Assembly: GCA_004022145.1 (NCBI GenBank)
Contig: RCNU01000007.1
Direction: 5' to 3' (one strand)
Length of the DNA stretch: 64,000 nucleotides
Source: Paecilomyces variotii
Taxonomy: Eukaryota
Position numbers and translations under genes: made by a program. Shown one piece after another: positions 1 to 49,311 of this stretch. Within the stretch, counting starts at the first letter, position 1. Each line of letters opens with the position of its first letter. A model generated the notes under the pieces. That model did no database searches. It saw nothing but the letters and a program-made list of their open reading frames with translations, and was not told where the DNA came from.

Positions 1-1448
1 GCACATATCTGGTGACGAGTTATAGCGCGTGGTATCTGGCTTCGTCGACGACCACCACGGAAGTAAGTCCCTCCAATCCTTCTCTGGCTCCCTCATTCGG
101 GGGTTGGAGAGAGAAAGAGAGAGACATGGAAAGGCTAACCCAGGACAGACAGACTGCGTGACGAAGACGGCTTGCAACGGACAGGATACGGCGGTTACCA
201 CGACGCCCGGCAGCCCCGAGTGCACGATCGACCCGGATGTCCAAAGTGCGCTGTCGGTTGAGCAGGCGGCCGAAGAGACGATAATTAATGGGCAGCAGAT
301 CCCGCTTGCCTTCGAGCCGACAAACCCGGCGGGCTACAATGGATCGACGTTTACCTTGACGCAGTTCGGGTTGACAGACACTCTCACGGTTGTGAAGACG
401 TCGACGGTGACCATCCATCCGACTACAACGGTGACGGTCGTGGTGCCGCCGACGGCGCAGGCGGACTGTGCATACTGGTAGCGATTCTTTTCTATTTCTT
501 GCTCTCTCTCTCTCTCTGCATCTATATCTATATCTATCACTATGCTATGTATGTCTATGTATAGTGGCTGACAAGCACAGGATCACTGATTTCTTCTACA
601 TCTTCGAAGTCTACAACATCGCCGGCTGGAGCACCGACGGCGGCTCAAGCCTGAACCACGAAGAAAAAGGCTGCGGCGCCCTGACAGGCTGGGAGTGGCA
701 CGAGCATACTGACACCCAATATTCGCGCGCCTACTTCAACCTGCCCTTCATAATGAAGTCTGGCTGCGTCGAGCGGGCCATCGTCTCAGCTGGCGGGCCC
801 AAGCTGTCCTGTGAGTTCCAAGACTACGACTTCCTCCTCAAGAAGAAGCGATCCGCGGCCATTGACCCCCCGCCGCCGGCGCCGTCATGGTCGACGCTGC
901 ACAGGCGCGACCTCGTCAGCGAGACGCCCAGTTTCCCCAGCGGCTTGTCGACCGCGTCGAGCAACAGCACGCGCCCGGCGACGACGGCGCCCCTGTACAC
1001 GCCTGAGTCTTGGGGCCCCGGTAACACGGAGACGTTCACGACGACCCTCAACGAGACCTCGAAGTCGACATATACGACTGAGATCGTCCTGGCGACGGGG
1101 ACGAACTCCACGACGACAGGATCCAAGACGACCAGTACCCAGACTACCAATACGACGACGACCAGCACTACTACACCTACTACTACACCTACTCCTACCA
1201 CTGCACCTACTACCACTACTACTTCTCCTACTACTACTACATCAGGAGCAGTCGCAACCCCAACCCCCACCCAAGCCGGGATGGTAAGTAACTGCAAAAA
1301 GTTCTACTATGTTAAGAGCGGGGACGGCTGCCAGGCCATCGCGACAACGTACGGAATTACCCTGGACGAACTGTATACCTGGAATCCGGCGCTGAATGGG
1401 GATTGTACGGGGTTGTGGGCGGATTACTATATCTGTGTTGGTGTGTAG
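1..1448 (+). CDS. 3' part of a secreted Cys/Thr-rich protein with a C-terminal LysM domain (5' end outside the window)
   Basis: Exons join in frame across GT..AG introns at 63-148 and 478-580. A Thr-rich linker is followed by a typical fungal LysM ([52 protein letters not shown]). Confidence 0.85.
495..562. repeat. Compound (CT)n/(TATC/TATG)n microsatellite in an intron
   Basis: ctctctctctctctctgcatctatatctatatctatc...tatgtatgtctatgtat lies inside intron 478-580. Confidence 0.8.
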
Positions 1449-1454
1449 GTTGGT

Positions 1455-2060
1455 ATCTTTATACAGTAGAATATATCTATAGCTATATCTATAGCTTGTA
1501 ATAGGGAAGCGCCCTGCGAGTATATTAGCATAGCTAGATATATACTATACTGTATATATAATAAGATCCTTAAGGATATTTAGTATTAATAAGGGCTTTA
1601 ATAAATATAGTTCTATTAATTTCAGAATTGATATATATACTTTATATCAGTATATAAAGCAAACGCTAGGTAGGTAATGTGCAATTATCCGCTTATAGCA
1701 GGTTCCCGCATAGAACTAGATTGAACCTCCATTACACAGCGATAATTCTTGCTGCTTATACGGAGATAAATCCTAGCATTATTAGCCAGTGCATATGGAT
1801 ATGTTACTGAATAAGTACATGTACATTTGTGTCGGTATTCCTGGTTATACTGACCCTTCGCGGCGCGTTTTCTTCTTCTCCTCCCTATGAGTATATTCTA
1901 ATTAATGTATTATAATAGCTATGTATAATTACCTTATTTATTAAATAGTAGTTAATATAATTGCAAACACTATAAATTATATTAAATATTTACTGGTTAT
2001 AATAGTATAATAGTATTAAGATAACTATTATTGTATTTATAACCCACAGCAACACTAGTT
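1455..2060. other. AT/TpA-rich degenerate tract, RIP-like
   Basis: Abrupt switch from GC-rich CDS to TA-dense, ORF-free sequence. Confidence 0.6.
1717..1875 (+). repeat. Dispersed degenerate repeat, copy 1 (copy 2 at 13651-13800)
   Basis: Colinear shared blocks ttgaacctc / gataattcttgc / taaatc.tagcattatt / ccagtgca / ttactgaa / tcctggt / cccttc.cggcg.gtt. Confidence 0.8.
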
Positions 2061-2246
2061 AAACCGGAAAACACGGCAGCGGCGGAATTCTCGGAACTGA
2101 TTACTGTGGCTGATTAGACAACAACGGAGGGACACAGTCCGTGGTTTCCGTTTTTAGCCCGTCACCCTGTCTTTCGGGGTAGAAAAAACTTGTTCGCGTA
2201 GAAAGAATAATACATACTGTGATGTTCTAATCAGAGACCTGACGTC

Positions 2247-4737
2247 CTATCCCGACTGGGTGGCGGCTCCCGAATCTGCAAGTGTCATATCGTGTACTTG
2301 AAAATCTCCGCCATCGCATTGTGCCAGGCCATATGCGGCAGGGTCAAAGAATTGAGCTGACCATTCCATAGTGTTCGAGATTTCGCTTGGCCATTGCCAA
2401 TTATTCGAGGTTGCTGTCAGACTGTCGCCTGGTACGAGTGGAATGTTGTCGACTAAGCTCGTCGAGCAAAAGGGAACAGGTTGTTGAACATCTTCTGGTG
2501 CTAAAAGTTGCAGTTTGGTATTGGGAATATCTGGTGATAGCGTTAGAGGAGTCACTGCCATTATGCTATGTGCTGGAATGTTCATACTTCCCAATAACGA
2601 ACCCAGCCGCGTGAGGCCCTGTAGCATTTTCATTGCTTTCTTTGCAGCATCGGAGTTAGAGCTCAATGCTTCAAAGACTGTAAGGCATATCTCAGCATCC
2701 TCGCGCAACGTCCCGTGGGCGTCACAGTCTGCGCAGTCGTTTTCTGAGAAAGATTCTGCGATAAACAATATCGAGCTTGCACAGATAAGACAGGGAATCA
2801 TCTGCCACCATGGAAAATCATGTACGAGGCTCCCCTCGTCGCTGACATTGTGCAGCAGGCGTGCGGTTTGTTGAGCCTCGGATATACAGATCTTCTCTGC
2901 TCGCTTTATCCGAGCACTGTCTTGCTGAAGTAGATCCATAAATGGCTTGTTGTTCCGTTGTAGCAGGGGAAGGCATAAAAACGTTCGGTGTATGAGTGCC
3001 CGCAGGTGATGAAACTTCACTGCAAGCATATTTCGCTGTTAAGGTCAGAATCGTGGAAGCCATTTTCTGACAATCAGTCGCTGCAGCGGGATGACCGCGT
3101 ACCTGCCGTTTCAACGTAACCGACTTTTGAAATGTATGCCCAAGATCGAACCGCAGGTGCCGCGGCAAATTTGACTTCCATTCAGTGATCGACGTATCGA
3201 GTGCTGAAGCACTAAGAAGCATATTATCTGGTGATGGGTCTATCTGTGATGGCTGATAGAGCTCTCGAATGACTAATCCGACAATGTGGGAAAAGCGAAT
3301 CACCTGAAGAAAATAGTCCATCGTGGAGACCTTCAATATCTCACTGTTGTCCCCGGAGAGGCTCTTCTCTTCATCCGGCTCGAAAGCAAGTTTTTCTGAG
3401 CGGGATGGTAATATGACGTGAAAGTCTGATTCATGGATAGCCATGGGACGTCCTAGCTGCAAAGCCAGAAGACGGTCCAGCACATACATTGAGTACCATG
3501 CTCGTCGCCGCAGTTCTCTTTCTACTACGGGCGGGAATTTCGACTGTCGTAAAGTGGAAGAAGGTTCTACATGCAGGCCGATGCTCTGCCCCATGCGAAT
3601 AGCGAATCCAAGTATGTTCCAACATCTATGCTCTGTCAGCCGAAGCGCTCTGGACAAGAGACACACTGCTCACCTATCAGTCTGAGAAACTGCGAGGAGG
3701 AAAAAGCATTGGACAAGAAGAGCCCAGACGTTCGTAAGATTGCACATAGCTCCGAACTGGCCGGAAAAGTATGTGCCCTGGTTGAAGTACTGAAAGTGCA
3801 TCTGGAGATCTCTGGTCTCCTCGCGAGGAAAAGACATATAGTAAGAGCCAATTGCGAATATGAAATCTCTTGTAGTCAGTATACATCTGAGTATGTCACG
3901 AATGAACGTTCTTACTTATTAGCGCGAGCCACGAGCGGTCGCGTTTCCCGTCTAATTCACCGTTCCACAGTCGACGGTATTGGCGCAATACGGCTGCCTT
4001 GTAAAGAAATGGATAGGCAACGTGGATGGTAGAGAAATAGATATCGATATAACGATCTGCTTCCTCCTGAGAAGGAAGCTGTAGAGGTCGCCCAAATGCT
4101 GCCGTATCGTCGGACATGTCAACCTGCTCATAGCTTTGATTGTCGCGTTCCTCGCCTGTCGTGGCTGATTCATGTTCGCGCATACAGTCTCTTACAGTGT
4201 TAAAGAAATGTATGTCGCTCGCTCTGCCAACATAACTAGGTGATTCAACATCCTTTTTGCCACTAGCACCTTGGGTATCTGGACTCTGGCTTGCATCCCC
4301 AGAGACAATCTCATCGGGAATATGGCGACGGATATTAGTGAGAGTCATATCGAGCGCGGCACGTAGTGCACCATCCAGCCTTGGTCGCATACTCTGTATA
4401 AGGACTTCATAGTTCTTGATGGCCTGCAGATAGGCTGCAACATGGTTCTGCGTTGTTGGGGTAGCTCTGTTATCTGATATGCTAGACTCAGAGTGCGGAA
4501 TATCGCTGTCTTGGGCATATTTTCGAGTATCCTTGGTGGCTGTACGCTTTCTGTCTGCCCACCTACATGTGAAGCCATACCCGGAGCAACGACCGCAGAT
4601 AGGTTGCTGACCATCGCACTGAGGTAGATGTTAGCTTCTCAGACTGACGTGATAGGCGAAATACCAAAAGATAACAAGACCTTCGCTTTCAGCAGACGAC
4701 ATTTCTCACAGGCCAATTCGACTCTCTGTCGCTTCAT
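2247..4737 (-). CDS. Zn(II)2Cys6 transcription factor with fungal-specific TF (MHR) domain
   Basis: Spliced N-terminus MKRQRVELACEKCRLLKAK|CDGQQPICGRCSGYGFTC (intron 4619-4680). Middle region YIDIYFSTIHVAYPFL and AIRMGQSIGLH...RRRAWYSMYVLDRLLALQLGRP. Confidence 0.92.
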
Positions 4738-5996
4738 GATTGGAATCCAGGGCTGCAGTTCCACAGGTATTGCACGATGTTACACATGGAAATAGTGATG
4801 TTCGTCACACTGCCGGTTTGCGATGCGGCACAGAGAAACATTCCCAGTTTTGTCACATGATCTATTTTTTCCGTGGCCAGCAGCAACTGACATCATGCGA
4901 CGTTTTTGCAATATGCGATCAGTTGACTATGTCTGATCTTCTGTCGATGCTGCAATGGCTGTATTATTGCAGAGCTGTAGTTATTAATTTGCGAGATCAA
5001 CCTAGCGGAAACAGTTCATGAACGAGAGGTATAAGTAATGACCGCTTTCTTGCCAGGCTCGAACTCCTCCTCGAATGGCCTCTTATGAAACAGAAAGCCG
5101 GCTCTTTGCTCTTTTGATTTATGGGTGAGCGCTACCAGTAATAATTATGGATTTATCACAGCTTTCTCCCCAGGAATAGTTCTGTCGGTGATGTCGCTGG
5201 AAATATTACGGTAGAAACCTATCTGTCTGGATGCAATTTAGATAACATGGGCGTCTAGTCTCAGTCATTACAAGATTTAACGAACTTAACTATCTACTCC
5301 GTATGTTACTTACTCGTCTTAAGGCCAATTTATCCCCTCTGCGGCTCGGTTCACGTGACTGCTAGGATTCGGTAACGAAGCCTAGCAATTTAGTTAAAGA
5401 GCCCCTATAAAATAGTTAAAGGCTATCCCTAAACTAGTTCAGCTACCACTATCTACATAGCGAAACACCTCCCTAAAGTTTCACGCTAATATTCCCCCTT
5501 GTTTTATAGGGTACCACACCGCACCCTCGGCACCTACGTCGGGGATTTAACCGCTTAAAGGCATGCCAAGTATACCGAAAAGCGCCCTCTAAAAGCACCT
5601 GTAAGTTAGTTAAACAAGCAGCGAATATTGAAACCTTAGATATAGGCGATATCTACTTAAAGGTCCTGTAGATTATGCTTTTACCGAGTTCTAGTAGTCT
5701 CATAAGATTATCCGTTACGAGTCTCAGGCCCACTGAACTAGGTCCCTCTTAGGAACGTCCTCAACCGGAGGGGCAAGGGGATAGTTGCTGTCGACTCGAG
5801 AAAGGGGGGCGTGGATCGAAAATGTGAGAACTACACGGGCCGCCCGAGCCGGGAGAATGGACACGCCTAGGGACTAGTTAGGGCAATATCAGACATTTCC
5901 GCGCGGGCAGTAAACAGCAACCACAGAGACATTGAGTATTCAATTACTTACTCTTCATGCTAGAGATATCGATCTCATACCGACCTAGGAGCGACA

Positions 5997-7550
5997 ATGG
6001 AAGAGAAAGGCCCGCAGCATCATGGTTACAGAAACGAGAATGAAGGCCAGCCTCGACTTTACGATTCTACGTCCTGTCGGGAGCATCGAAGATCGGAGCA
6101 GAATCGACAATTTGACTCCCCGTATGAGCAGACATACCGCTCGCCGAGTCCCTCTGAACAATATTCTTTCCCGGAAGCAGAATCCAATCTCGATGAAGTG
6201 GCAGCACCATCACCCACATACGACCCTAGCGAAGACTATATACGCAGACATAAATATCTGGAGGATGTGAGATCGGATAACTCAAGACGAAGAAGAACAT
6301 CTGGTGACCATCCACGACCTGGGAAGAGGCATTCGCATGGGGCTGGTGTCGAGGCTTCAGCATCTGAACCGCTCGATGTCGAAGCACCCAGTTCAGGAGT
6401 GAGAGAAAAGACTGGAGAGGGACGCCCGTCATCACGCCTTTGGACGGAATTGTACACGATATCTTATTTGATTTTCTTCTCCTTCGTGGGAACCATACTC
6501 AGGCTGGCCATCGAGGCTCTAACGTTCTACCCCGGTGCCCCCGTTATTACCAGCGTCCTTTGGGCCAATGTCGGGGGTAGCTTCGTCATGGGCTTTCTCA
6601 GCGAGGACCGCCGGCTATTTAGCATTGGCGGTCCAAAGGACAGCCCGGCTGTCTCAGAAGCAGAGGATGAGGATTTTGTAAAGGCACATCATGCCCACAA
6701 GAAAACTATTCCGCTCTATATCGGTCTGGCGACCGGTTTCTGCGGTACCTTGACTTCCTTCTCGACCTTCATTCGCGACGCCTTCGTTGCCATCTCCAAT
6801 GATATCCCCGCGCCTCACGGACCATATTCAAGAGTGTCAATATACCAGTTGCCTCCCCCAGATCTCAAAGCTCCCAATGGTGGCTACAGTTTCATGGCAG
6901 TTGTAGCTGTTCTGATTACGGAGATCGGTCTATCTATGGCAGGGTTAATGGTTGGAGCTCATTTCGCTCTATTGACAGCACAATGCTTGCCCCCTGTCTC
7001 AACAAAGTTCATGCGGCAGTTTCTGGATCCACTTATCATGTTAATCGCTCCTCTAACCTGGATCCTCGTGATATGTCTTGTTGTCCTCTTGCCCCATTAT
7101 CACAGCGACAACAGCTTATGGAACGCAGAGATATGGCGAGGCCCTGCGCTGTTTTCTCTCGTCTTTGCTCCAGCTGGCTGTCTCGTTCGCTTCTACGTAT
7201 CGCTGAAGCTTAACAGTCGCATACCTTCGTTTCCCTTGGGGACATTCGTGGTGAATGTTGGCGGAACGATGATCTTGGGAATGGCGTACTCGCTGCAGCA
7301 CGCGCGGATCGGCTCTACCCTCGGCGGAGGAGGATTTACAGGCTGCCAGGTGCTGCAAGGCATTATGGATGGATTCTGCGGATGTGTCACAACTGTCAGC
7401 ACCTGGGTACTGGAGTTGTCCAACTCCAGACGACGACATGCCTATGTATATGGTGGAGCTACGGTCGCCGTCGCACTGGCAATGTTGGTAGTGGAGATTG
7501 GCAGTCTCCGGTGGACTAGAGGCTTTACAACTGCCGCCTGTTTTGTGTGA
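5997..7550 (+). CDS. FEX: FEX-type fluoride exporter (two CrcB/Fluc domains)
   Basis: Intronless 517 aa. Two Fluc signatures, GLATGFCGTLTSFSTF and GIMDGFCGCVTTVSTW, plus R...N pairs (GTILRL...ANVGGSF; GCLVRF...GTFVVNVGG). Confidence 0.92.
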   Translation: MEEKGPQHHGYRNENEGQPRLYDSTSCREHRRSEQNRQFDSPYEQTYRSPSPSEQYSFPEAESNLDEVAAPSPTYDPSEDYIRRHKYLEDVRSDNSRRRRTSGDHPRPGKRHSHGAGVEASASEPLDVEAPSSGVREKTGEGRPSSRLWTELYTISYLIFFSFVGTILRLAIEALTFYPGAPVITSVLWANVGGSFVMGFLSEDRRLFSIGGPKDSPAVSEAEDEDFVKAHHAHKKTIPLYIGLATGFCGTLTSFSTFIRDAFVAISNDIPAPHGPYSRVSIYQLPPPDLKAPNGGYSFMAVVAVLITEIGLSMAGLMVGAHFALLTAQCLPPVSTKFMRQFLDPLIMLIAPLTWILVICLVVLLPHYHSDNSLWNAEIWRGPALFSLVFAPAGCLVRFYVSLKLNSRIPSFPLGTFVVNVGGTMILGMAYSLQHARIGSTLGGGGFTGCQVLQGIMDGFCGCVTTVSTWVLELSNSRRRHAYVYGGATVAVALAMLVVEIGSLRWTRGFTTAACFV

Positions 7551-8300
7551 ATGGGCGTAGCTTCCTCACGGTTTGGCAAGCGATTTTCGAGTATATCATA
7601 ACTACCGAACGTGTGATGGTTTCCTTTTCACGCGCTGGTGTTCTGGTGCTGTCGATAGTTTTCATTATCAGAGATACAGTCTATAGAGAATATTTACCAT
7701 ATATGGAGAAGGATAAATAAAATTTATCGGATCAGTTGAAAAGGAACAAACAAACCATAAATTGAAATCCAACAGACATTATTACCCTGACAGTCTAAGA
7801 CCACAACTAAGAGCCCGTAAAACTTATTTGACATGCAGGGGTTAGTTTTTGTAGCAGTATTCTTATTCTCAATTTTAGTGGAATGCTCTGTACCATTGCG
7901 GCTGTGAGCCTTCTGAGCATTTGCCAATCTAGACAAAATAAGGTTACCAGGACGTTCATTCCTGTCATTCGCAGAGGCGCAGAAATGGCATTCAACTATC
8001 GAATTTGCTTGCTTAAGACTCGGAATCTAAGAGAGATTTGGCCCATGTTCAGCCGCTGCTTAGACAAAATGATTAGATGAGTAGCATCCAGTAATTTGCT
8101 TCCCTTAGTCAAGCTCACTAACGGCATTCGCTACCTCGCATAGGTACGCTGCTGCTGCTGACAGTTCAATCAACATTGAACCTCAAATGGCGCTCGGCTT
8201 CGACGAAAGAGACCACTCGATTGACACTTTAACGCGGAAACTGGTACTTAATGGTTTTTCGCGAATTGGGGTTCCTCCGCAAATAAACGCACACCCACGT

Positions 8301-11300
8301 TCATTCCATATCACCTTCTTCCTTGCTAGCGAGAAAGAAACGACCTCCTCCGCTTTCGCCTTCCTTCTCGTACTGAACAGATATTTGAGCGAGATGGCTC
8401 AGAATCGTCCCAATCTGGATGTCTCCTTTACTCCGCTTAGTTCGACCGAGTTCGTCCAGCCACCGAATCTTGTTCAGAGCATAGTATATCAGCGCGAGGA
8501 CAACGGTGACTCCAATGGCATAGCCCCAGATCCGGACAACCGTCACAATATCCGTCCACCCATTTTGTGTTTCCTTCGGAGTATTAAGTAACTGGTCATA
8601 GGGGTCCGTGACCATGTCTCTATTCGAGAGCCAGCCAAACAAGCAAAATATTGTGGCCAAGGCATCGACACCAAATATTGCGCCGACCAACTGTAGTGAC
8701 GGCCAGGTATCAGCTCCTCTGGTGATAAATATCAGCCAATTTTCTGTTAGTGCAACCTCGAGGAAAATGACCTCTTCGATAGAGCCCCAGTTCTGAATAA
8801 TGCCGCCATCCGGGAGAAACATAGTCCCACGAATAACCCATGTTGCTGCTGCAAGTAAGATGCCAAGTATAATAGAGATAATCCAGATCTTTGGCAGCTG
8901 CCATTCTACCGGTCTGAGCTCATAAGATGCATGGTCATATGCGATAGCAACAGTAGCCAGATCAGCAAAAAGCGCAAGAAAAACAATTAAATCAGCCCGG
9001 ATACTTTCATTCAAAATAATCATACTCGTGACAAGATAGATTTCCAAATGAAGACAGAGTGCTATCCTATATTGGATATATGCCTTCATTCGATGAAATA
9101 TCTGCCGAGCAACTTTGATGGAGTCAATGATTGTTGAAAGTCCCGGCTCTAAAAAAACAATATCTGCAGCAGATTGAGCAGCCTCAGATGCCCCCTCAAC
9201 TGCAATACCACAATCAGCCTTTTTTAGGGAAGGCGCATCGTTTACCCCATCTCCAGTCATGGCAGTGAGATGGCCACGATCTTGAAGTATCTCAACGACT
9301 TGGTATTTGTGTTCAGGAAAAACCTCAGCAAATCCATCAGCTTTCTCAACTAATTCAGCGGCCATCGCACCACTTAGACCGCCACTGATAAGCTTCTCAG
9401 ATTTGAACACCCTAGTACCTAGGCCCAGCATTTTACAGGTCTCTTTTGCAATAGCAATAGCATCACCTGTAAGCATCTTAACTTGAATCCCAAGCTTTTG
9501 GGCTTCAGCAATTGTTTGGGCGGTATCCTCGCGGGGAGGATCAAACATCGGAAGCATGCCAAGGAGAGTCCAATCTTCACCTTCCTTTTGAACAGCAACA
9601 CCTAAGGAACGGAAGCCGCGGCTGCCAAATTCTGTTGCTTTTTCTTTATACGTCTTTGCAGTGCTCTCCGAGGAGTTAGTGAGCTGCAAAACAGCCTGCG
9701 GCGCACCTTTGGTGCATGTATATCTCGTCCCGTTGCAAGTTGCAACTGATACAATCCGCTTCGAAACCGGGTCAAACGGATGAAATTCTTCCATTTTCCA
9801 ACCTTGCTGAAGGATCTCTTTTGCCTTGGGGTACTGTCTGAGTGATAAAATAGTGATCCTATCAATGGGATCAAGGGTGTTAACATTATGGGATGATGCT
9901 AGTGCTGCCACGGCAAACAGCCAGTTCACATCGACCCCTTCTGCCACAAACGGTTCTCGGATGCTGAGTCGATTTGCTGTTAGAGTTCCAGTCTTATCGG
10001 AACATAGGACATCAACACCCTAAGTTTCTGTTAGAACAGAGTTTCCGAAATAGATGAAGGAGAACAAAGGATATATCAATACTTACCGAAAGTGACTCAA
10101 TGGCGGTGAGCTTCTGTACAATAGCTTTCTTCTTTGCGAGATACGCTGCTCCAACAGCTAATGTCGTGGTTGTAACGACTGGAAGGCCGACCGGGACTCC
10201 GATGATCAACAATTCTAGGGTGTAAAAGAGAAGGGTCTGTTCTTTTGGCGAGGCAATAGGGATATTCCGATAGAACCCGCCAATCCACATAGCTAGGATC
10301 CATGCCATCACGAGAACTAGTAGAACTGTGCCAATACTATCCATGACCATTTTAAAATGACCGGTGTCCTTCGTATTCTGAACCATGGCAGCGGTTCGAC
10401 CAACGAAGGTCCTCGGCCCAGTCGACTGGACCACCGCATAGGCTTTACCACGCTTGCATCCAGTGGTGTAGAAAGCCGTATCGCCCACATAGCGATCAAC
10501 GGCAAGAGACTCACCAGTTATAGCTGAATGGTCACAAGCTATGACTGAGGGTCCTCGCTGATCTGTTTCGTCATGCTCGCTGCCGTCTTTATCCTCCGAG
10601 TGATCAGCCGCTCCGGCTGACAGTTTCCCCTCCTCCATAAGCCTTTTATATTCGTTCCATCCATTTTCGGGGTCATCGTAGGCGCAAATTATTTTAGCAT
10701 CTGCGGGAATTGTCTGGCCCTCGTCGATTATGATCTTGTTATTGACTTAGTATGGTATCCTCGTTCAACCCATGAGAGGAGTGAAAATCAAATTTTGACT
10801 TACCACGTCTCCAGGAACAAGCTCACGCGCGTAAGTATCAACTTCCTCTCCGTCACGAACTACTATAGCTCGCATAGCAATATCGGCTTTGAGTGCGGAA
10901 ACAACATCAGCAGCTCGCTTCTCCTGATACCAGCCCACCACAGCGTTCAGGCACAGAATGCCAATGATAACACCGAAGTCTATCCAGTCCTCTAGTCCTG
11001 CAGCGAGCAAAACCGCGAGCTCCATCACTATAGCAGATTAGAATTACCCTGTATGATAGAGAGGAGTCGGTTATAAGATGGATCCTACCATATAAGATGG
11101 GCCCTTGAAAATAAGAGAGGAATTTAGCAAACGGATTCTCCTTCTCCGCAGCTAGTTCATTGTAACCAACGAGACTCCGTCTCGTAGACACGTCGGATTC
11201 AGAGAGGCCTTGACGAATATCGGTGAGAAGCCATTCTTCTGGAAAGCTAGGTGTGCTTCCAATGTATCTCCAACGAAATCTCTTCTGTCGCCAAGGAGCG

Positions 11301-11500
11301 TACCAGATGCGGCGGGTTCGCACCTCTCCCTCTTCTGGACCATGAACGTCCTTGTCTCGATAAGTTGACGCATACTTGACAAGCCTAGTAAACTCGTCTA
11401 GTTTCTCCCCGTCCTTGCTGGAGACGCGTGATGGACGTCTGTCTGCTGCGTCGTGTTCAACGTCGCGACTATTGTCGCCATCAACACCGTCTCGGGACAT
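8301..11500 (-). CDS. Plasma-membrane P3A-type H+-ATPase (PMA family), multi-exon
   Basis: [18 protein letters not shown] (phospho-Asp, ~9975-10000), [24 protein letters not shown] and ALTENW motifs. Three introns at approx. 10020-10086, 10736-10802 and 11029-11087. Confidence 0.95.
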
Positions 11501-12443
11501 TCTGCGGCTAGTGCGTACTTAATAGGAAGCCAGGCAATTAACACTTCTAACGCGATTTCGGTATGTTATTCCCCAACTTGATCACACGGTGATTAAGAAG
11601 CAAACCAAGATGCTTAAATAATGCATTCTAGGATCTGCAAGCTCAACGGTTATATGGCCAAGTTAGAAGTACAATGACGGACGACAACCCTTTGTTTGAG
11701 CCGATTATGATGTTATCGGCCGGATACTTCCCAACCATGGCCTGGATCAAAATCCTGAAGTATGACATTGTATTCAACAAAAGCCAAGGACAATCAAACA
11801 GAAGTTTGAGTGGATCCCTGCAGATGTATACTCGTTCGGGTTCAAAAAGCTACATGGTACCCTCCGCCATATCCGGGACAGTTTCAGGTTTCGACTATAT
11901 ACTCTATCTTAGCTGGAGTCTAGGTACCTACTGAGGACCACAGCTAGTATCAACGAACACTGATTCTCTTGTCTGAATAACCCACTGCTATCTACGTCGT
12001 TCACTTGTCTGGCGTCACCATTACGACTGGACAGTGACATGTTGACAAAGAGCAATCAACCCGTCCGGACCGTCTTCGTTATAGTATGCTTCGATATCTT
12101 TATTATCTTGATTTCACCTAGTACCTAGTTTTCGACTCTAATAACTGCAAGATCCGATATGTTAGTTGAAGTCTTACAATTGCTATTGAACCTATCGTTA
12201 TATACCTACCGAGTGTACAGCGACGTCTTTCCCTCTTATATCTCAGAACTTCTGAAGTGTCCCAATTCCATGACACAAGACTTTGGAGTAATCTATATAC
12301 ATATATTTCGGGCCTAGATTCCTCTCCCAAAGTAAAGTATGACTACCCAAACCCCAACCCTGCCTTCGGTCTTCACAGAAGAGGAAATACGAAAGTTAGT
12401 AGACTGACCTGTGTGTGACTAGACATAACATTAACAAACACTG

Positions 12444-12671
12444 ATGGCTACCATTCTAGTCTCACAACCCCGGCCAACGAGTGACAACATTCGCAAAATC
12501 ATGAAACGAAGCGATTGGGCGCAGAATCAGCCGGGTGTTATTCTTGTATTTGTGATCGTCTTCATTATCGGCTGCGGAATCCTTATGGTGATGATCCATA
12601 AGGAATGGTTGGCACGGAAAGCTGAAAGGGCTAAATGGAGCGTCGAAGAGATTACGGATGATGATAAATAG
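12444..12671 (+). CDS. Small single-pass membrane protein (75 aa), divergent from the H+-ATPase
   Basis: WAQNQPGVILVFVIVFIIGCGILMVMIHK hydrophobic helix with a basic C-terminal flank. Confidence 0.6.
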   Translation: MATILVSQPRPTSDNIRKIMKRSDWAQNQPGVILVFVIVFIIGCGILMVMIHKEWLARKAERAKWSVEEITDDDK

Positions 12672-38082: not shown

Positions 38083-40435
38083 TTATGCCTGCTTCCATTT
38101 CTGCCACCGTCGGATTAACCATATACAACCAAACAAGACCCATGGGAATATCATCATGGGGAAGGGTTTTTTGATGGAGACGAATACAAAGGGAGCCGTG
38201 AAAAGAAACAAGCCTATATATGAAAGGCTCCTCCTAGCTGGGTATAAATTCCAAGCGTTGAAGGCAAGAGAGAACAAAAGAATGCAATTGCACACTGTCC
38301 CTGTTGTTTCAAGTTCCCCCCCAGACATAGAGCCTGCAATGCTGAAAAAAATGAACCCTATGTATGCAATGATATAGAGGACACGCCAATATCTCACATA
38401 GCGTGCAGCAGACTGCACGGACCATCTGAAGATGCCGCCAGCGGCGAGTGCCAATGGAAGTGTTAGAATCAGACAACCTAGCATGATTCCAAATTGTTCC
38501 CAGGTCCAGTTCAAGGACCCTGATGTATTCATAGCAGAAATTATCGCTTCTGTGGAGTTACGGGTGTCAGCAGGGAGACCATCTAGCGATGAATTTGTCC
38601 AGGTAGAGAATGCCTGTGGGCCTGGCGAGGTATTTGTATTCATATTCATGCCAAAGAAACTTGTCGTGAAAGACAGAGGCAGGTAAATGGCAGCGAGTAA
38701 CGCAAGAATAAAATCTCGACGGCCTCGAGACAGAGAGAGCTGTTCACGAATCTTCTGCTGCATCTCTTCGATAGCTTTGGAAGTATGAACGAGCTCATCC
38801 TGGAGATACTCAAGATCTGTCCTGAGTATCTCTAGCCGCTGCTCGAAAGATTGGCCTCCGTCCCAGAGCTTTTGCTCTGTTTCTTGCTCACGGATCCAGT
38901 TCTCAAGTGTCTTGAGGACGCTTAAGGCATGCGTAACTGACTCTTCGGCACCGAAGCGGCAGTCTTCGAGATGGACTAGATATCTCATCTTGTTAACGCT
39001 GGGATGCTGGCGGCCCAGAAGTTCCTGAAGTCGTCGTTAGTTGGCCAGCGTAATTATAACTGAAATATGTCCTCATGCTTACCATCTTGCGGAGCTCATC
39101 TGTGCAGCCTTCTAAGAAGGTCCTCGATTCGAATTTCATGACCTGGAATACCGCCAATATCGAGAAGACAATCTCGCTTTGGCATGCGCGACAGTTGACA
39201 AGGGTTGTGCCCTCCGACCGAGCATAGACCTGTGACTCACTACGCATGTAGGAGAAATGATGCAATGCATTCATGGAGCGGAAGAGGATAAAAAGCCTTG
39301 CGCCATTATCTCCGCCAGCGACTGTGTTACTGCTAGATGCGGAAGTCGCGGACGCCGTTCGATTGTCATGTTCAGGTTCTGTTGCAGGGAACAATCTGAT
39401 ATGGGCAAACTCCCTCTCTGGCAGCTTTTTATACTGTTGCCAAATCTCAACGTGCATGTCCGAGACGAAGCTTGGGGCTGTTGAGTGCCAGGTGAGCATT
39501 ATGCGATCATGAAAACCTTGTGCTGGATCCAAATTTCCCACTGGCTTCTCTGGTACCCAGACGATAAAAGATCAGCAAACAAGAATCAACTGCAATAACC
39601 AAAAATATATGACTACGGACTCACTCTGGGAGGGAAGGCTGACTAGCCTTCGTCGACTGCGCTCAATTACGTCGAAATCCTGTCCAACCAGGGGCATCGG
39701 CAAGTCCCACAAGTCGGACACTAGAAAACAAATCATTTGGCTTGGGGCAAAACGCATCCCATCTATATTTCTCCTAATTGTTGCGCTCACTTCGTGCCTG
39801 AAAGTGAAGAACCCGTCGAGTGCCCCCGTGTCTGGCGTAGCGGCAACCGCACTAAACTCATCGACCTTGCTGAGAAACTGCTCTTATGATGGAAGACAAA
39901 TTACTCACACCAACGTGACACCACCTGGTGGACAGTGTTTAATTGAATATGCCAAGTTAGAAAGCATTTCCGAGAAAGAATTACTTGGGTCGGTGACTAG
40001 TATTTCTTCATTCCCTATGCAGAAATCTTAGTCATGTCGTAAAGGAGGATCTGTTTCTAACTCACACTCTGCATCCGTGGAATATGTACTTTGCTCAGTC
40101 CATGAATGAATGGGCGATGGCGTAAATGTCCAGCATCGGAAAATGTCGACGAGTCCCACCGTTGGTCTCTTTTTGAACCGTATGTATTCCCGTAGTAATT
40201 GGCGTAGAATGGGCCGGAAAGAATGGTCATTCGAGCTGGCGTGCCTTTCTATTGCATGTTTGAGTCGTATCTCATTTTCATCCTCGTCTGACGGGCTTCT
40301 GGCTGCACGTAACAATTTCATCCAGCGCCTGACCATTGGCGGTGGGGAAAGGTCACCTTGAGATTCTAAGCTTGGTTGGCGAGGCAGGCTTCTCAGACTG
40401 TATGTATCAGGCTCTAGACTCGAATATAACGCCAT
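38083..40435 (-). CDS. CorA-like membrane protein (GMN motif) with extra C-terminal TM helices
   Basis: Coiled coil, then LAAIYLPLSFTTSFFGMN. Exons are joined by introns including 40015-40065 and ~39027-39082. Confidence 0.75.
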
Positions 40436-42726
40436 TTTTGGTGTGCAACAATATGCAAATTTGCTAAAAGAACGGAAATCGAAATGTCAACAACCCGATT
40501 ATTGGGATAGGGAGAATAAATGAGCCTCATTCCAGAGCCTCAGTCTGCAGCCTCGCTCCACACTGTCCACAGCCTTGTGTACTACGGAGTAGTTCGTGCG
40601 CAGTGGGAGAGCCGCAATTGCTGGCGTTTACAGGTAAAACTAAGACTAACTGAGCAGATTTACCAGAGATCTTCAATCATCGGACGAAATAACGAATCCG
40701 ATTAGCTTTCTTAAAATTAGGCATTAAATAAAGGAGTTGTGTTTATTTCTTTCATTGGATCCTATCCTCCACATTTTCAGCCCCCACGATCATCAGCCTC
40801 TTATCAGAGGGGGTCGTGTATAAGTTTTGCCCCCACACTCTTGCAGATCTCAGGAATATGCCAGCTCACAAAGCGTAGTTACGCCCAGGTGATTTGTCAT
40901 ACCAGCTGTTTGCAGCATGTTCTTTGAGATATAGGCCAGCAAAACAATCCACAAGGGGAATTCTCATCACCGTCAGATCTACCCATGGGGATAAACAGCT
41001 TGCGATCGCCAAAGAATCCAAGCATATGGCAGGTTCAACTTGCGAAGGTATTCTATTATAAAAGGATTAGTCTATTGTATGAGCAATGAGATAAGATATT
41101 CGTCTATTTTAATCACAGTGTTATCATGACTTACAAACTCCTCTGAAACTATAGAAGTATTTCTGATTCCACTCGGTGGTCTACTTGTGACAATTAGTCT
41201 ATGGAAGATTGACTGCCATATATTGTCTGAAATATCGGATATTATGCGTGTATTTGCTTATAACTTTAACTAAGCTTTCACCCAAGTTAATTTGATAAAA
41301 GGCTTATCCATACTTTAAGTTCTTACCCCGCAATACCGATTATGCATAAATCCAGAAAGATTTGGGACGCCCTGTGACCACTGTATATTAATTATTATTG
41401 CTGGCAAGTCCCGTTTTCTATCGTGCTGGTAACCTCTAAAAGACACGATACTTAGTTGATAAATGATATACTACCAAGGGATCTACAGATTCTGACATTC
41501 TAAAGACGGCCATCGGGCGCAATGATAAACGTATGGATACCTTCTATCCTGTTTGCGTCTTTATTAACACTGATAGATGTCTTGTCTATCCTTTTTTGAT
41601 TCGATGCCACCTAGAAGCGATGTGAGTGTGTAGTTATGATCAACTAACTACAATCCTCCGGTATTTATCTTCAAACCTTCTTGATAACAAATGATCAACT
41701 TGGGAATTAAGCACCTAAAAATAGAGCATTATGCTAGTTATTACGAATGCTTATAGAGCTTATTCTCAGCTTTCCGAGGTTCAGCTCGGTAGACTCTAGA
41801 GGAACCTTCGATGGGGCTCTCCGACGCCTTCGCCTTGGCGAGGTCCACATATGAACTATGTAAATCGTTTCAGCTTGCGAGAAGATCGAAGCATTGAACA
41901 GGTTTAAACTAAGATCAGCTGTGGGTATCGAATAGGTAGAACTAGACAGAGACCCGCTAGGATTCAATGCCATATGGTAACTATACATTGAAGCTTGATA
42001 AGACAATTCTACGCTATTCCTAAACTTCACTGTTGGCTGTTTTTAAGTAAACTTGCGGGACTTGCGAGCTAAGCATAGCCCGTACAGCGTGTAGTTGCAC
42101 TGTATTATCTCAGGCTACTGGACTGAACATGATGAAGATGCTTGATTCTTTAAGAGAGGAGCATCTAGCTGTGCGGTGGGCTATGCCCAAACAGGAAGGA
42201 GACAGGTGATTCCAAGGTTCCAACCAAAGGTACGGTACATAGGTACCTAGGTAGGTATCCGCCAGGCTCCATGGTTAAATGCTATTTTGAATCCGAATCT
42301 TACTAGATCAGGCAGACATAGAATCAATTCAAAGATAACCACACCGCCATTCCAGCGGTACTTATGTGGTCCACTGTCAATTTGAATCAAACTACTAACT
42401 AGCACTCCGTAGAGAAGTCCTAAAGCAGTATTCCATTATCAGGGCTCCACAATATCTTGCGTCATAACGTCGGAACTGAACCGATAGGATCCATATACCC
42501 GAGAATATTGATTAGCATCTCTTCCACTTTGATGATTTTGTGTTTTGTGCCAAAAAGAACAGATTCAGATCAAGCATTCTACTCTAAACTTTGATGAAAA
42601 AGTAAAAGTCCACTCGTTAATTGCCAACCATAACCTACACTGGGTGATTACTGGTGCACTGACGAACACGCTTTCCGATATCCAATAACCGGATGCCAAC
42701 TCCAGACCAAAGACGAATAGTCTCCA

Positions 42727-43578
42727 ATGGCCCTATTCAGCGAACACGAAGGCCAACAATGGCCTCAAATCTGCCAACTCCTTCTGGCCGTCGGACTGAC
42801 ATCGCTGATCGGAATCGAGCGCCAACTGCGTCAAAAGGCTGCTGGACTACGCACCAACACGCTCGTCGGAATGGGGTCCGCTCTCTTCATGCTCATGTCC
42901 AAATACGGCTTCACGGACATTTTGGCCCGATACATGATTGTGCTTGACCCGTCGCGAATAGCAGCTCAGATCGTCTCTGGGGTCGGATTTATCGGTGGAG
43001 GGATCATATTCAAGCAAGCTTCGGATGTGAGGGGCCTCACGACGGCGGCGGCGGTGTGGTTGAGTGCCGCGATCGGATCGGCGTGTGGTGCAGGACTGCC
43101 TATACTGGCAGCCATCACGACTGGGTTGTATTTTGTGACGGTGTTAGCTTATCCGTTGGTATGGTACTCGATCGAGAGGGTGAGGAAGCGGAATGCATTG
43201 GTCGAGTCATGTATTACGGTGCGGTATCGTCGATCAGAGATGGGCTTGGAGCCGATTCTGGAGGGAGTGTTGAAAGCCGGCGCGGAGTCGGTCCAGGTTA
43301 GGAGGATCGAAGAGGTGGTAATGTCATCTATACACAGTCCAGTCGTGGGCACGATGGAGAGATTGGAGAGACCAGCAACAAGACAGTCGACGGCTAACAT
43401 GCCTGGAGTCTCGCCGTTGCCACCGCCAATGGAGAGTCAGGGGTATTACAGTCGAATTTTCGATCTGCACATCGTGGTGAGAGGACATGAATCGCCAAAT
43501 GAGCTTATAGTTGGGCTATCGCAGCTGAACTCTGTTGTTGGTGTGTGGATTGAGGGAGATACAGGAGATGAGGTATAG
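42727..43578 (+). CDS. mgtC: MgtC/SapB family membrane protein
   Basis: Intronless. LIGIERQ...AGLRT..LVGMGSALF...DPSRIAAQIVSGVGFIGGGII...VRGLTTAAAVWLSAAIG, followed by an ACT-like C-terminus. Confidence 0.93.
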   Translation: MALFSEHEGQQWPQICQLLLAVGLTSLIGIERQLRQKAAGLRTNTLVGMGSALFMLMSKYGFTDILARYMIVLDPSRIAAQIVSGVGFIGGGIIFKQASDVRGLTTAAAVWLSAAIGSACGAGLPILAAITTGLYFVTVLAYPLVWYSIERVRKRNALVESCITVRYRRSEMGLEPILEGVLKAGAESVQVRRIEEVVMSSIHSPVVGTMERLERPATRQSTANMPGVSPLPPPMESQGYYSRIFDLHIVVRGHESPNELIVGLSQLNSVVGVWIEGDTGDEV

Positions 43579-44220: not shown

Positions 44221-44329
44221 TGGCCCATATTCCCATTGAAAATATAACTTCCCATCCTAATCCTCTCAAACATTCCTCCAGCATACAAGAGACAAACCAC
44301 ATATTACAAAACCAAACCAATTGTCCATC

Positions 44330-44710
44330 ATGCATTACATCCTCAACCTCACCCTCATTACCCTCGGCATCTCCTCTGCCTCAGAAGCTCTAGGCATCAA
44401 CTGCAGAGGCAGCAGCAACTGCGGCGGCACCCTGTGTTCTCTGAGCACGATCTATTCTGCAGTCGAGCAGCTGCCGGACGGAAACTTATACAATCCAGGC
44501 CAGCACATCGCCTGCTGCGGTGATCCGGGCGTCGTTTCTGGACTCTGTGCGTTTACGCAGAACACGGACAAGCAGATCTCTGCCGCTCAAGCCAAGACGC
44601 TCCTTCAGGGACTTATCAATCACGGTTGCCAGAAGTGCGGCAGCAACCCATTCCAGGATAACAATGTTGCTGAGGGGGAACTTACTGTGAACTATGTGTC
44701 TCAGAAGTAG
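44330..44710 (+). CDS. KP4 killer toxin-like secreted protein
   Basis: Signal peptide, then LGINCRGSSNC...HIACC...GLCAF...HGCQKCGSNP...GELTVNYV, the hallmark KP4 pattern. Confidence 0.9.
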   Translation: MHYILNLTLITLGISSASEALGINCRGSSNCGGTLCSLSTIYSAVEQLPDGNLYNPGQHIACCGDPGVVSGLCAFTQNTDKQISAAQAKTLLQGLINHGCQKCGSNPFQDNNVAEGELTVNYVSQK

Positions 44711-45423: not shown

Positions 45424-47134
45424 ATGAACGGAGACACCGTCTCGAACATGCGCACCCAGCCGTTCATAAACAACAAGGTTCGAAGCCCATAGTTATATGC
45501 ATCCATCTTCAAACACTGCCAAACTAACAAGCATTATCAGTATGTCACCACCAAGTACCACGACAAGCTCAAGATCTACAACCCAACGGACGAAACCCTC
45601 GTTACCGGAGACGTTCAGATCTGCGGCCCAGAAGACGTCAACGACGCTGTGGACGCGGCCAGCGATGCCTTCGAGATCTGGAAGACTTGGACCGGTGCCC
45701 GACGCGCCAAATGTCTCTTGAAGCTGGCCGACCTCCTAGAAGCGAACTGCGAGCGTCTAGCTAAGCTTGAAACCATGGCTATGGGCATGCCGTTTATTGC
45801 TGCCCGTGAGCTCATTCGTACCAAAGTGGCCGAATGGTTCCGGTACTATGCGGGCTGGTGCACCAAATTGGGAGGAGAATACTATCCCGATGATGACGGT
45901 GAAGGTTTCTACAAGCTCGTCACGTATGAACCGATGGGCGTCTGCGCTGCTGTGGCATCGTGGAACGCAACCTTCCTCTATGCTGCGTGGAAGATTGCGC
46001 CTGCTGTGGCTGCAGGAAATACCATCATATTCAAGGCTTCAGAGCGCTCTCCCCTTGGGGCGCTTGCGATGGGCGATCTCATCAAACAAGCAGGTTTCCC
46101 ACCTGGTGTCATCAACATCGTCAGCGGCGGAGAATGGACCGGCTTCCTCCTTGCACAACACAAGTGTATCACCAAGGTCAGCTTCACCGGAAGCCACGGC
46201 AATGGTAAAAGGATCCATGTGGCTGCCACGCACAGCAATATGAAGCGCGTGACTCTCGAACTGGGAGGGAAGAATCCATCTATCGTCTTCGAAGATGCGG
46301 ATTTCGGCAACGCCTTGCATCATAACTCTTATGGATTCCTTCTCAACACTGGCCAGGCCTGCGTCTCTGGATCGAGACTTTTCGTCCATGAAGAGATCGC
46401 AGATGGATTCATCAGGGGTCTCGTAGACTGTTTCAAGGCTTTCACTACCATCATGGGTGATCCTATGGAACCGAACACTTTGCTTGGACCGCTCGTCGAT
46501 AAGAGACACTATGATAAAGTGATGTACTACATTGCAGAGGGGCAGAAGGAGGGCGCGCAGCTGCTGTGTGGAGGAGTCAGGAAAGGCGACAAAGGCTGGT
46601 TCGTCGAGCCGGCTATCCTTCTCAATCCGCCTACGGATAGCTGCGTGTATCGTGATGAGATCTTCGGTCCGGTTCTTGTGGTTCGCACTTTCAAGGATGA
46701 AGAAGAGGTCATCGAGATGGCGAATGATACCATGTATGGACTTTCAGGTAAGAATGATCTGACTGCATCAATATACTGCTATGTTTTCTCAAAGAAACAA
46801 CACACTAACAATTAGTCTCCTAACCTCCAGCGAGCGTCTTCACCAAAGACATCGTGCGTGCCATGCGTATCAGCTCTGAGCTCAAAGCCGGCACTGTGAG
46901 CATTAATAGCGGCACAATGCCCACCATGAGCACTCCATTCGGGGGCTTCAAGCAGAGCGGGTTCGGACGTGAGTCTGGAAAGAATGGACTCATGGAGTAC
47001 CTAGAGCCGAAGACTATCTTGATCGAGTAAGTGTGATTAGTCCAGGGATTCATATGTGCCTCATGGCTTTGGGACAGTCACTGACCTATGCTATCTCTAG
47101 CTGCAAGCCGCCTCCTCCTGAGGATGAAATCTAA
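45424..47134 (+). CDS. NAD(P)+-dependent aldehyde dehydrogenase
   Basis: SWN, KASE, SFTGS, LELGGKNP, GQACVSGSR (catalytic Cys), EIFGPV, PFGGFKQSGFGRE. Confidence 0.93.
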
Positions 47135-47449: not shown

Positions 47450-49311
47450 TCAACTCTTCACATCAACCTTTGGATCAGCTTTGAGTTCTTTGCTCTCCGG
47501 CGGAATGACAGCTTCATGCTTCTCGTAGCCTTTGAGGTCTTTGACATCTCCAGGACCGGTAAAATGCTTCCTGCCCGTCGTCAACCAGGTCACGGTACTA
47601 ATCAGTCCAATGACTCCGATAGCAGCAGATGTGTAGTTCATGTTCTCCTTGTCGACAGGAGAGCTTGAGGGAAAGTTGCAGATTGTAGCAGCGAAGAGGA
47701 GGAAGATAAGGCCGATGGTACTAACACCCAGGGAGATGGAAGGTGACAATGCCCAGGGGCCCTGCATAGCGGTAACATGGCCGGTGAAATAGGCCAAGAT
47801 GCGGGAGAATAGAGGCATCGCATAGGAAAGATCTGTTGTTGATAGTCGGTTAGCCAGGTGTCTAGTCTAGATAAGGATGTATTAGGTATAGGCATACAGA
47901 ATCCTTCGGTGGCAATCGAGATGACGGTCTCAAAACCCGTCAGAGTCCCAAAGTAGATGGCATTCAGAGCCATCTGAACTCCCAAGCTGAGAAGGATAGC
48001 ATTGATTGGTGCACCCCGCTTGTCGTTTACTTTGGCAAAGAACCGCGAGAAAGGAAGACCATGGTCACGAGCGAAGGCGAAGACTGAGCGAGAGCCTTCA
48101 GCCAGGAGACTATTCGAGGCGAAAATGACGATGACGTTTATCATGCTGGCAAGAAAGCAGGCCCCGACCTTGCTTTGAGTGGAGTCAAACAATATCTGAA
48201 TAACAGGCACACCAGTACTCGTATCCGCGGTTTCGTTGATGTTCCCGATGCAGAAACACAGAGTGAGGAGGAAACCAAACCCAGTGACAGCTCCTAGAAG
48301 CACGGACAGGATAATGGCCTTGGGCGCTTCTTTGGATGCGTTCTTCATCTCCTCTGTCATGTGTGCAGGGGCATCGTAGCAGCACATGCCGAAGCAGGAT
48401 TGAAGAATACCTACCATGGCCGCCATGCCAGAGCCCCAGCCTGTGAAGTTCTGGAACTCCTGGAACACAAAGGAAGCAGGCTGTTTGTGGTCGTTGGTAG
48501 CCAGAATCGTTATCATCACGATTACAAAGGAACCGACGTTCCAGATTAGGATAAATCGGGAGATGCGGTTGAGAAGATGCGGGCCCCAGATATTGACAGC
48601 CGCAGCCATGAAAGCGATCAAATATGCCACGAGGACTGTGTGCCAGCGTTCGATGGTAAATTGAGGGAACACTAGGTTTGCTTGACCAAGAACAAAGTTG
48701 GCCGCCACGAAGTTATTCGTTGCTCCCATTGCGAGAACACCTGAAGAATCATCAGCACCCGATCTGTTGGAAATCGATAGAGGTAACAATATACATACCA
48801 GTCAACATAAACCAGCCAGCAACGTACGAGAACCCTCGTGCAACTCTTGGAGGAGCCAAGATTGCTACCCAGGAATATTGACCCCCTGCGACCGGCCACA
48901 TCGAACACATCTCCGCCATGGGGAAAGCAACGGCCAGAGTTGCCAAACAGACGGCGATCCAACCATAAACCATCACAGGCGGCCCTCCAGCATTGACACC
49001 GACAGTGAAGACACCACCCAGCGCAGTCCAACTATATAAATGTCAGCGGAGTCGGTTTGAGTAGATGATCTATTGTCAGACGCACGAAGTAACAATACTG
49101 AAACTGAAGCCAATCATGCCCAGGAGACCAAAGGACCGCTTGAGCTCTAAGATCATTATCAACACATCTTCTCCCCAGACGTGAAGTGTTGTTTCCTCCT
49201 ACCTTGCTGGTAACCAAGCTGCTCGAGGCGAACATCTTCTGCTGTCGTTCTAGAGAAGACCTGGGCACCGGTCGCGTGTCCCAGAGAGGCATCTTCTTTG
49301 TGAGTCCCCAT
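47450..49311 (-). CDS. APC-family amino acid/GABA/choline/polyamine permease
   Basis: MAEMCSMWPVAGGQYSW, YDAPAHMTEEMKNA, SRSVFAFARDHGLPFS, NMNYTS. Confidence 0.92.

Follow-up and report, generated by a model that had tools for sequence, protein, structure and literature searches.

Why would a mould keep the gene of a fluoride channel tail-to-tail with that of a proton pump when it already carries two other pumps of the same type? The question is raised by a 64,000-nucleotide stretch of Paecilomyces variotii DNA (contig RCNU01000007.1 of GenBank assembly GCA_004022145.1; hereafter the window), in which four genes occupy positions 2247 to 12671. They are a Zn2Cys6 transcription factor gene (coding sequence 4737..2247, minus strand), the fluoride exporter gene FEX (5997..7550, plus strand), PMA3b, which encodes a third P3A H+-ATPase paralogue (11500..8301, minus strand), and the gene of a 75-residue proteolipid resembling yeast Pmp1 (12041..12671, plus strand). 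The transcription factor gene and FEX are divergent, FEX and PMA3b are convergent, their stop codons lying 750 bp apart, and PMA3b and the small gene are again divergent. An earlier reading of the sequence alone, here called the original prediction, had proposed these genes as a candidate fluoride/acid-stress module, and open reading frame (ORF), splice and Pfam checks found all four present and intact, placed and oriented as it had said.

Our answer is that the locus is a conserved ion-homeostasis neighbourhood of P. variotii in which FEX lies tail-to-tail with an accessory pump gene, PMA3b, which in turn lies head-to-head with the gene of a proteolipid, the products serving a joint fluoride or acid function. 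We give this reading a probability of roughly two in five; a joint function of the genes is plausible and unproven. The genes themselves, the paralogy of the pump, the recurring linkage and the congruent Aspergillus trees described below speak for the module as originally conceived; three points found no support: FEX as an added copy, a tie of the transcription factor to the transporters and a general linkage of FEX with PMA. The original prediction also held that such a cluster was not known as described, and indeed no FEX–PMA neighbourhood was found in the literature searched, which covered few subscription journals. The component families are known, and the same literature yielded nothing on the neighbourhood, on a PMA3 clade or on PMP1-family proteins in Eurotiales.

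We begin with the channel. FEX is a single exon encoding 517 amino acids, with two CrcB domains preceded by an N-terminal extension of about 150 residues. Pfam CRCB (PF02537) matched it in two stretches (103 bits against a cut-off of 32.9, E = 1.1e-29), and residues 157–510 aligned to the solved Candida albicans FEX (9op1/11wr, chain 11wr_C; E = 6.8e-38). As expected of a eukaryotic FEX, the protein has two CrcB domains in one chain and is similar across both to a characterised FEX; its core residues are conserved over 17 Eurotiales FEX sequences. By family, it is assigned as a putative fluoride exporter. Yeast FEX1/FEX2 and C. albicans FEX are likewise single polypeptides with two CrcB domains; unlike them, the window FEX carries the N-terminal extension and its gene adjoins a proton-pump gene. 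Pma1 appears merely as a loading control in those portions of the FEX literature that were available.

The window FEX is identical to the P. variotii protein P0385 and 99% identical to another, P0121. Copy numbers of FEX and PMA rest on protein-database matches, and no second P. variotii FEX was present among the best 120 of 2296 such matches. The protein also branches as the species tree predicts, beside Rasamsonia/Talaromyces-type sequences. Because of these two observations, the window FEX is probably the sole FEX of P. variotii, and the proposal that it is an added accessory copy was not borne out. Separately, metatranscriptome contigs (runs X1, X2 and X4) have a 21-base gap at position 6270, in frame and inside the N-terminal extension; this agrees with P. 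variotii FEX variants of 510–517 amino acids in a 90% cluster and indicates that the extension varies in length among strains.

The neighbour of FEX is by family a plasma-membrane-type pump. PMA3b has four exons (11500–11089, 11027–10804, 10734–10087 and 10019–8301, minus strand), and its spliced product of 1000 amino acids, checked against the P. variotii protein P0370, is identical to it. It scored 837 bits against the equivalog model TIGR01647 (ATPase-IIIA_H; cut-off 615.5), covering profile positions 1–755 of 755, and matched yeast Pma1 (7vh5) over residues 82–229 and 277–981 with E = 1.2e-274. The motifs TGES, DKTGT (which we take to be the phosphorylation site) and TGDGVNDAP, together with the membrane aspartate that presumably forms the proton site, are identical in PMA3b and yeast Pma1 7vh5 and invariant in alignments of 7 and 40 PMAs. 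Equivalog and motifs together point to a plasma-membrane H+-exporting P3A ATPase, of the same type as the Pma1 proteins of Saccharomyces cerevisiae (7vh5) and Neurospora (1mhs/7nxf). PMA3b differs from yeast Pma1 in having about 20 additional residues in the last extracellular loop and a valine at the second position of the C-terminal Ser-Thr pair, a pair that we assume to act in glucose activation of the yeast enzyme. It further differs from fungal Pma1 in being a third paralogue, from a clade of patchy distribution.

That paralogy is apparent from the last exon. Its 572 amino acids were 100% identical to the window's own cluster (P0241, 1000 amino acids), 79% to the P0015 cluster (1015 amino acids, including DTO212C5_6997) and 72% to P. 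variotii P0340 (998 amino acids, DTO212C5_2041), which belongs to the PMA1 clade; the whole protein is 66% identical to the P. variotii PMA1-clade protein and 73% to PMA2. Strain DTO212C5 has three PMA genes, with tags _2041, _6997 and _4732, in three separate clades. Since it also has a canonical PMA1 and PMA2, the pump is a third paralogue, as the original prediction had supposed of it. The possibility that the window holds the sole housekeeping copies of both genes therefore does not apply to PMA; the FEX is probably the only one of the species. A PMA tree of 50 rows contained three starred clades: a PMA1-like clade of 6 rows, a PMA2 clade of 21 rows branching as the Eurotiales families do, and a PMA3 clade of 13 rows that is sister to PMA2 and splits into 3a and 3b. 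PMA3a comprises the section Nigri gene An16g05840, present in many A. niger strains, and some Penicillium sequences, and PMA3b comprises Paecilomyces and, in a patchy distribution within Aspergillus, sequences of A. unguis, of two strains of A. niger and of several species of section Flavi.

The linkage of FEX and PMA3b recurs. By the order of locus tags or accessions, the two genes are adjacent, with consecutive tags, in 11 P. variotii assemblies, and the pair is present in every P. variotii assembly seen (protein clusters of 18 and 20 members). In six species of Aspergillus section Flavi they lie one to three annotated genes apart: adjacent in A. pseudocaelatus (KAE8422306/307) and in two annotations of A. 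pseudonomiae (APSETT444_001990/001991; KAB8260716/717) with a distance of two in a third, two apart in A. pseudotamarii, A. bertholletiae and A. novoparasiticus, and three apart in A. nomiae. A looser arrangement is found in A. unguis, nine apart on one contig. Because the pairing recurs in several Aspergillus species, the genes may act jointly against fluoride or acid stress.

The gene trees of the Aspergillus pairs agree as well. In the PMA3b tree as in the linked-FEX tree, a group of A. unguis with A. niger stands opposite a clade of section Flavi, and within Flavi both contain the groups (A. bombycis, (A. pseudonomiae, A. nomiae)) and A. pseudotamarii with A. pseudocaelatus; the PMA tree leaves the deeper order of the Flavi groups unresolved. 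The FEX of A. niger CBS147353 departs from this agreement, standing apart from that of strain IFM63604. A. pseudotamarii and A. pseudocaelatus have a second FEX in a separate, long-branched Flavi clade, and for that reason the FEX linked to PMA3b is an additional copy in these two species.

On its other side PMA3b faces the small gene, which on the plus strand comprises a 5' untranslated exon spanning at least 12041–12336, an intron at 12337–12422 and the coding sequence at 12444–12671. The original prediction had called its product a micro-membrane protein; the identity could be sharpened, by Pfam, HMMER and a protein-language-model atlas, to a PMP1-like proteolipid. Residues 31–59 match Pfam PMP1_2 (PF08114) at 19.4 bits and E = 9e-4, with a gathering cut-off of 22.3. 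An exhaustive HMMER search recovered 60 related representative clusters at E <= 1e-3, of about 60–150 amino acids apart from one of 488. When 36 family members were aligned, 14 of them matched PMP1_2 (E <= 0.01; best 2.4e-6), with at most one member matching any other family. In the atlas the 75-residue ORF falls among Ascomycota clusters, one of the near ones having PF08114 on 11% of its members. A PDB profile search with the small-protein family gave a best match at chance level (E = 0.87).

The alignment has PGV[IV]LVF at the start of the helix and a basic stretch after it, with 2–7 basic residues among the 18 that follow the helix in the relatives. An AlphaFold2 model of the 75-residue protein has a single helix at 30–73, with predicted local distance difference test (pLDDT) scores of 91–97 over residues 31–60; model and alignment together fit a very small protein that crosses the membrane once and has a basic stretch behind the helix. 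An 'NWA' motif is present in 36 of 36 members and a dibasic site, which could be a Kex2-type processing site, lies 8–10 residues before the helix in 32 of 36. We conclude that the protein belongs to a conserved fungal single-helix family, is PMP1-like and is likely a pump subunit. Like yeast Pmp1/Pmp2 (PF08114), it has one hydrophobic helix followed by a basic stretch; in contrast to them it is longer than the 43-position Pfam profile, has an N-terminal part of about 30 residues with the dibasic site and 'NWA', ends in an acidic tail and is encoded next to a pump gene. The small gene is seemingly unannotated in the deposited P. variotii genomes, because the exact sequence is recorded from Logan assemblies alone (16 and 1 contigs) and has no NCBI accession.

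Tiny membrane proteins that tune P-type pumps are familiar from animals: phospholamban and sarcolipin with SERCA, and FXYD proteins with the Na,K-ATPase, are single-helix regulators encoded apart from their pumps. By analogy, the same logic of a tiny single-pass protein tuning a P-type ATPase may apply here, with the difference that the putative regulator gene is paired divergently with the pump gene. In yeast, according to the part of one study that was available, Pmp1 and Pmp2 associate and co-purify with Pma1, and their joint loss halves the specific activity of the ATPase (PMC6521590). Binding of the window proteolipid to PMA3b would be the corresponding interaction.

The pairing of small gene and pump gene appears to extend beyond P. 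variotii. Relatives of the small protein and PMA genes lie on contigs of identical size in three other lineages: P0485 with PMA P0257 (25,125 bp), P0429 with PMA P0299 (280,998 bp) and P0424, from A. ibericus, with PMA P0250 (799,276 bp). All three PMA genes (P0257, P0299 and P0250) belong to the PMA3 clade. An acidic tail, [WYF]x[VIE][ET]EI, occurs in 7 of 36 family members, namely the window protein, the co-contig lineages P0424, P0426 and P0429, and P0423, P0425 and P0430, for which linkage to PMA could not be judged. This is a thin hint that suggests a PMA3-linked proteolipid sub-family.

These same observations could be taken to mean that the functional unit is the pump and proteolipid only, an auxiliary H+-ATPase serving at low pH or against weak-acid preservatives, with FEX and the transcription factor as bystanders. 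The divergent placement of the PMP1-like gene and PMA3b fits this, as do the same-sized contigs in three further lineages scattered over the PMA3 clade and an acidic tail that is found in the window protein and three co-contig lineages among its seven carriers. In addition, P. variotii is counted among preservative-resistant moulds and the H+-ATPase has been proposed as a weak-acid countermeasure in the accessible portion of one article (PMC9200314). It would, however, leave both the FEX–PMA3b linkage and the congruence of the Aspergillus trees unexplained, and the small protein is no more than a putative binding partner of the pump. We consider this narrower unit quite unlikely to be the whole of the matter.

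The fourth gene encodes a transcription factor, to judge by its domains. Its 735 amino acids are encoded by six exons (4737–4681, 4618–3916, 3866–3674, 3625–3103, 3035–2588 and 2530–2247, minus strand) with RNA-supported introns, a start codon at 4737 and a stop codon ending at 2247. It has both hallmarks of the Zn2Cys6 class, a zinc cluster (C-x2-C-x6-C-x6-C-x2-C-x6-C at residues 10–37) and a fungal-specific middle domain (Fungal_trans, PF04082, E = 1.1e-15 on the piece at 2818–3594). The spacer that separates it from FEX (4738..5996; 1259 bp from start codon to start codon) has a composition like that left by repeat-induced point mutation (RIP), with TpA/ApT of 1.36 and (CpA+TpG)/(ApC+GpT) of 0.81 in the one-kilobase interval 5001–6000. 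It contains CGG/CCG pairs, and it has no words in common, beyond chance, with the spacer between PMA3b and the small gene: nine-mers present in both number 6 where 9.6 are expected, and ten-mers 0 where 2.6 are expected. The factor may control the transporter genes, but nothing beyond position connects it to them.

Transcription was assessed in run X3, a single-organism library whose type was guessed. One spliced X3 contig of 2545 nucleotides bridges all five introns of the transcription factor gene, with GT..AG borders on the minus strand; its aligned pieces cover 2043–4618, and the fifth joint skips 4619–4680. Another bridges the PMA3b intron at 10020–10086. A third covers 12041–12336 and continues with 17 letters matching 12423–12439, and this jump from 12336 to 12423 implies the 5' untranslated intron of the small gene (12337–12422, GT..AG). 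Because these X3 contigs are spliced, the transcription factor, pump and small genes are transcribed and processed. For FEX there is an X3 contig spanning 6517–6987, for which an RNA origin is not provable because the gene has no intron. Runs X1, X2 and X4 were rejected as proof of transcription since their contigs run unspliced through introns and diverge from the window at many sites; we read them as probable DNA from a different strain. Contig depth gives no ranking of the genes by expression.

A series of observations weighs against an ion-homeostasis neighbourhood with a joint function. Linkage was taken from tag or accession order and from same-sized contigs, not from DNA read, which is a good but indirect proxy. 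By this proxy the pair is unlinked in the sister strain No. 5, whose PMA3 is 94% identical to the window's (FEX on a contig of 32,295 bp, PMA3 on one of 106,929 bp), in two A. niger strains (different small contigs) and in A. bombycis (150 accession numbers apart), and in A. caelatus a linked FEX was not seen. Because the section Flavi species are close kin, their linkage counts as about one event. Among 71 metagenomic FEX loci, of which 47 were flanked by 5 kb or more on one side or both and 31 on both sides, tblastn found a PMA gene near none and a PMP1-like gene near none (0/71 each; FEX itself, the positive control, 71/71). Linkage with PMA is thus not general to FEX, and the same count speaks against wide conservation; the loci are uninformative on Eurotiales because they are 36–65% identical to the query and come mostly from other fungi. 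Co-location across fungi, which the original prediction had singled out for examination, therefore holds in the 11 P. variotii assemblies, section Flavi and A. unguis, and breaks down in strain No. 5, A. niger, A. bombycis and the metagenomic loci. As for the remaining genes, the 75-residue protein itself, at 19.4 bits, stays below the PMP1_2 gathering cut-off of 22.3, a pmp1 null mutant of C. albicans has no phenotype according to the available part of the source (PMC6521590), and no word common to the TF/FEX and PMA/PMP spacers rose above chance.

The deeper gene histories count on the same side. Approximately unbiased (AU) tests of two groups, both named after the trees had been seen, rejected an Aspergillaceae-only PMA3 clade (p = 0.0024) and a clade uniting Paecilomyces FEX with the linked Aspergillus FEX (p = 0.002). 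These rejections show that no single, simple history is common to the pairs of Paecilomyces and of Aspergillus. As read from the trees, either the 3a/3b duplication is old with the linkage already present, or the linkage arose more than once, and a single joint transfer does not account for both the Paecilomyces and the Aspergillus pairs.

Alternatively, FEX, PMA3b, the proteolipid gene and the transcription factor gene could be neighbours by descent only, each working alone at a spot with few rearrangements. In favour of this, strain No. 5 has lost the order and A. unguis has it in a loose form, the linked cases are mostly close section Flavi kin, the spacers share no promoter words, and the P. 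variotii FEX is placed as the species tree predicts. Set against such simple inheritance is the presence of the linkage in both Thermoascaceae and Aspergillaceae despite differing gene histories, as well as the absence of PMA from the surroundings of all 71 other FEX loci. Within Aspergillus, an additional FEX copy stays with PMA3b in A. pseudotamarii and A. pseudocaelatus, and the PMA3b and FEX trees alike unite A. unguis with A. niger. On balance we regard inheritance without joint function as somewhat unlikely.

The A. niger copies raise a different possibility. Strains CBS147353 and IFM63604 carry PMA3b and a linked-type FEX (P0246/P0395 and P0174/P0188) in protein clusters of one or two members and on short contigs of 3.8–78 kb, and their nearest relatives are in A. 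unguis and, for FEX, also in A. heterothallicus. To judge by these relationships, the A. niger genes look like a recent horizontal gain. It is conceivable that the whole locus is cargo of a mobile accessory island, such as a Starship-type giant transposon, spreading ion-stress genes between Eurotiales. Both genes are rare in A. niger, the PMA3b cluster having 2 members on contigs of 15.6 and 33.9 kb, with closest kin in another section; the window also has RIP-like stretches and a disrupted DUF3638 gene close to the locus. The pair is nevertheless present in all P. variotii assemblies seen (the clusters of 18 and 20 members). Moreover, a Pfam scan, not exhaustive, of 70 ORFs in the 64-kb window found no tyrosine-recombinase 'captain', positions 1–20 kb hold no terminal repeats, and the literature searched yielded no paper linking Starships with fluoride. 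With only the A. niger copies speaking for it, a mobile island is very unlikely.

How might the products of an ion-homeostasis neighbourhood work together? At low pH fluoride enters cells as hydrogen fluoride (HF), which releases H+ and F- inside; P3A pumps export H+ and thereby generate the membrane potential. F- exits via Fluc/FEX because the resting potential is negative, as the accessible text of one report states (PMC12808221). In the scheme that we propose, PMA3b and the proteolipid would form an auxiliary proton-extruding unit that maintains cytosolic pH and an inside-negative potential under acid load, and FEX would release F- down the potential so maintained. Together, FEX and PMA3b would reverse the entry of HF, the one expelling one F- and the other one H+. 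Fluoride or acid would be the trigger under which the proteins act together.

A stronger version of this proposal can be formulated. FEX, PMA3 and a pump-dedicated PMP1-type proteolipid would then constitute a selected 'HF-expulsion' module in Eurotiales, exporting both ions of HF, kept over family-level divergence and moved as a unit between Aspergillus sections, from an A. unguis-like donor to A. niger. We consider this version unlikely. If it were true, PMA3b would be the first fungal P-type pump paralogue encoded beside its own single-helix subunit.

Eukaryotic fluoride resistance is currently explained by FEX alone. A pump and subunit kept beside FEX, if the proposal is right, would give the channel a resident partner, one that furnishes the driving potential and disposes of the proton of HF. 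The literature searched yielded no paper on the PMA3 clade, on An16g05840 or on PMP1 homologues in Aspergillus or Paecilomyces; the locus suggests a candidate function for this unstudied third PMA clade of Eurotiales, and it brings filamentous fungi into the proteolipid family of yeast Pmp1, with a genomic hint at the partner of that family. P. variotii and its relatives are spoilage moulds that tolerate acid and preservatives, and an auxiliary pump unit would bear on their survival in low-pH foods.

The four genes had originally been described as intact inside decayed DNA, a description that fits part of the surroundings. Among the first 20 one-kilobase intervals of the window, three (1001–2000, 5001–6000 and 14001–15000) have RIP-like ratios, with TpA/ApT of 1.28–1.36 and (CpA+TpG)/(ApC+GpT) of 0.71–0.81, and a DUF3638 gene at 17394–18259 (minus strand) is broken across three reading frames in the Pfam scan and is likely a pseudogene. 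The neighbouring coding intervals have no such bias, and positions 1–20 kb contain neither long repeats nor terminal repeats. Beside the DUF3638 remnant lies an ORF of 388 amino acids with an HNH_2 endonuclease domain (18923–20089, minus strand), and at the other end of the locus an ORF at 753–1448 (plus strand) combines an extended Thr/Ser/Pro-rich stretch with a LysM domain at its C terminus (E = 4e-6).

Further ion-related genes occur within the same 64 kb. About 30 kb downstream lie a piece of a CorA-like Mg2+ transporter gene (38083–39571, minus strand; PF01544, E = 1.3e-9) and an MgtC-family gene (42721–43578, plus strand; PF02308, E = 5e-36), followed by a KP4 killer-toxin-like ORF (44261–44710, plus strand; PF09044, E = 1.1e-34). 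The remainder of the window carries ordinary metabolic and transport genes, encoding two aldehyde dehydrogenases (45493–46815, plus strand; 55061–56476, minus strand), an amino-acid permease (47638–48801, minus strand), a major facilitator superfamily transporter (58429–59055, minus strand), an amidase (60410–61533, plus strand), an NAD kinase (30985–32970, plus strand) and a short-chain dehydrogenase (21017–22189, minus strand).

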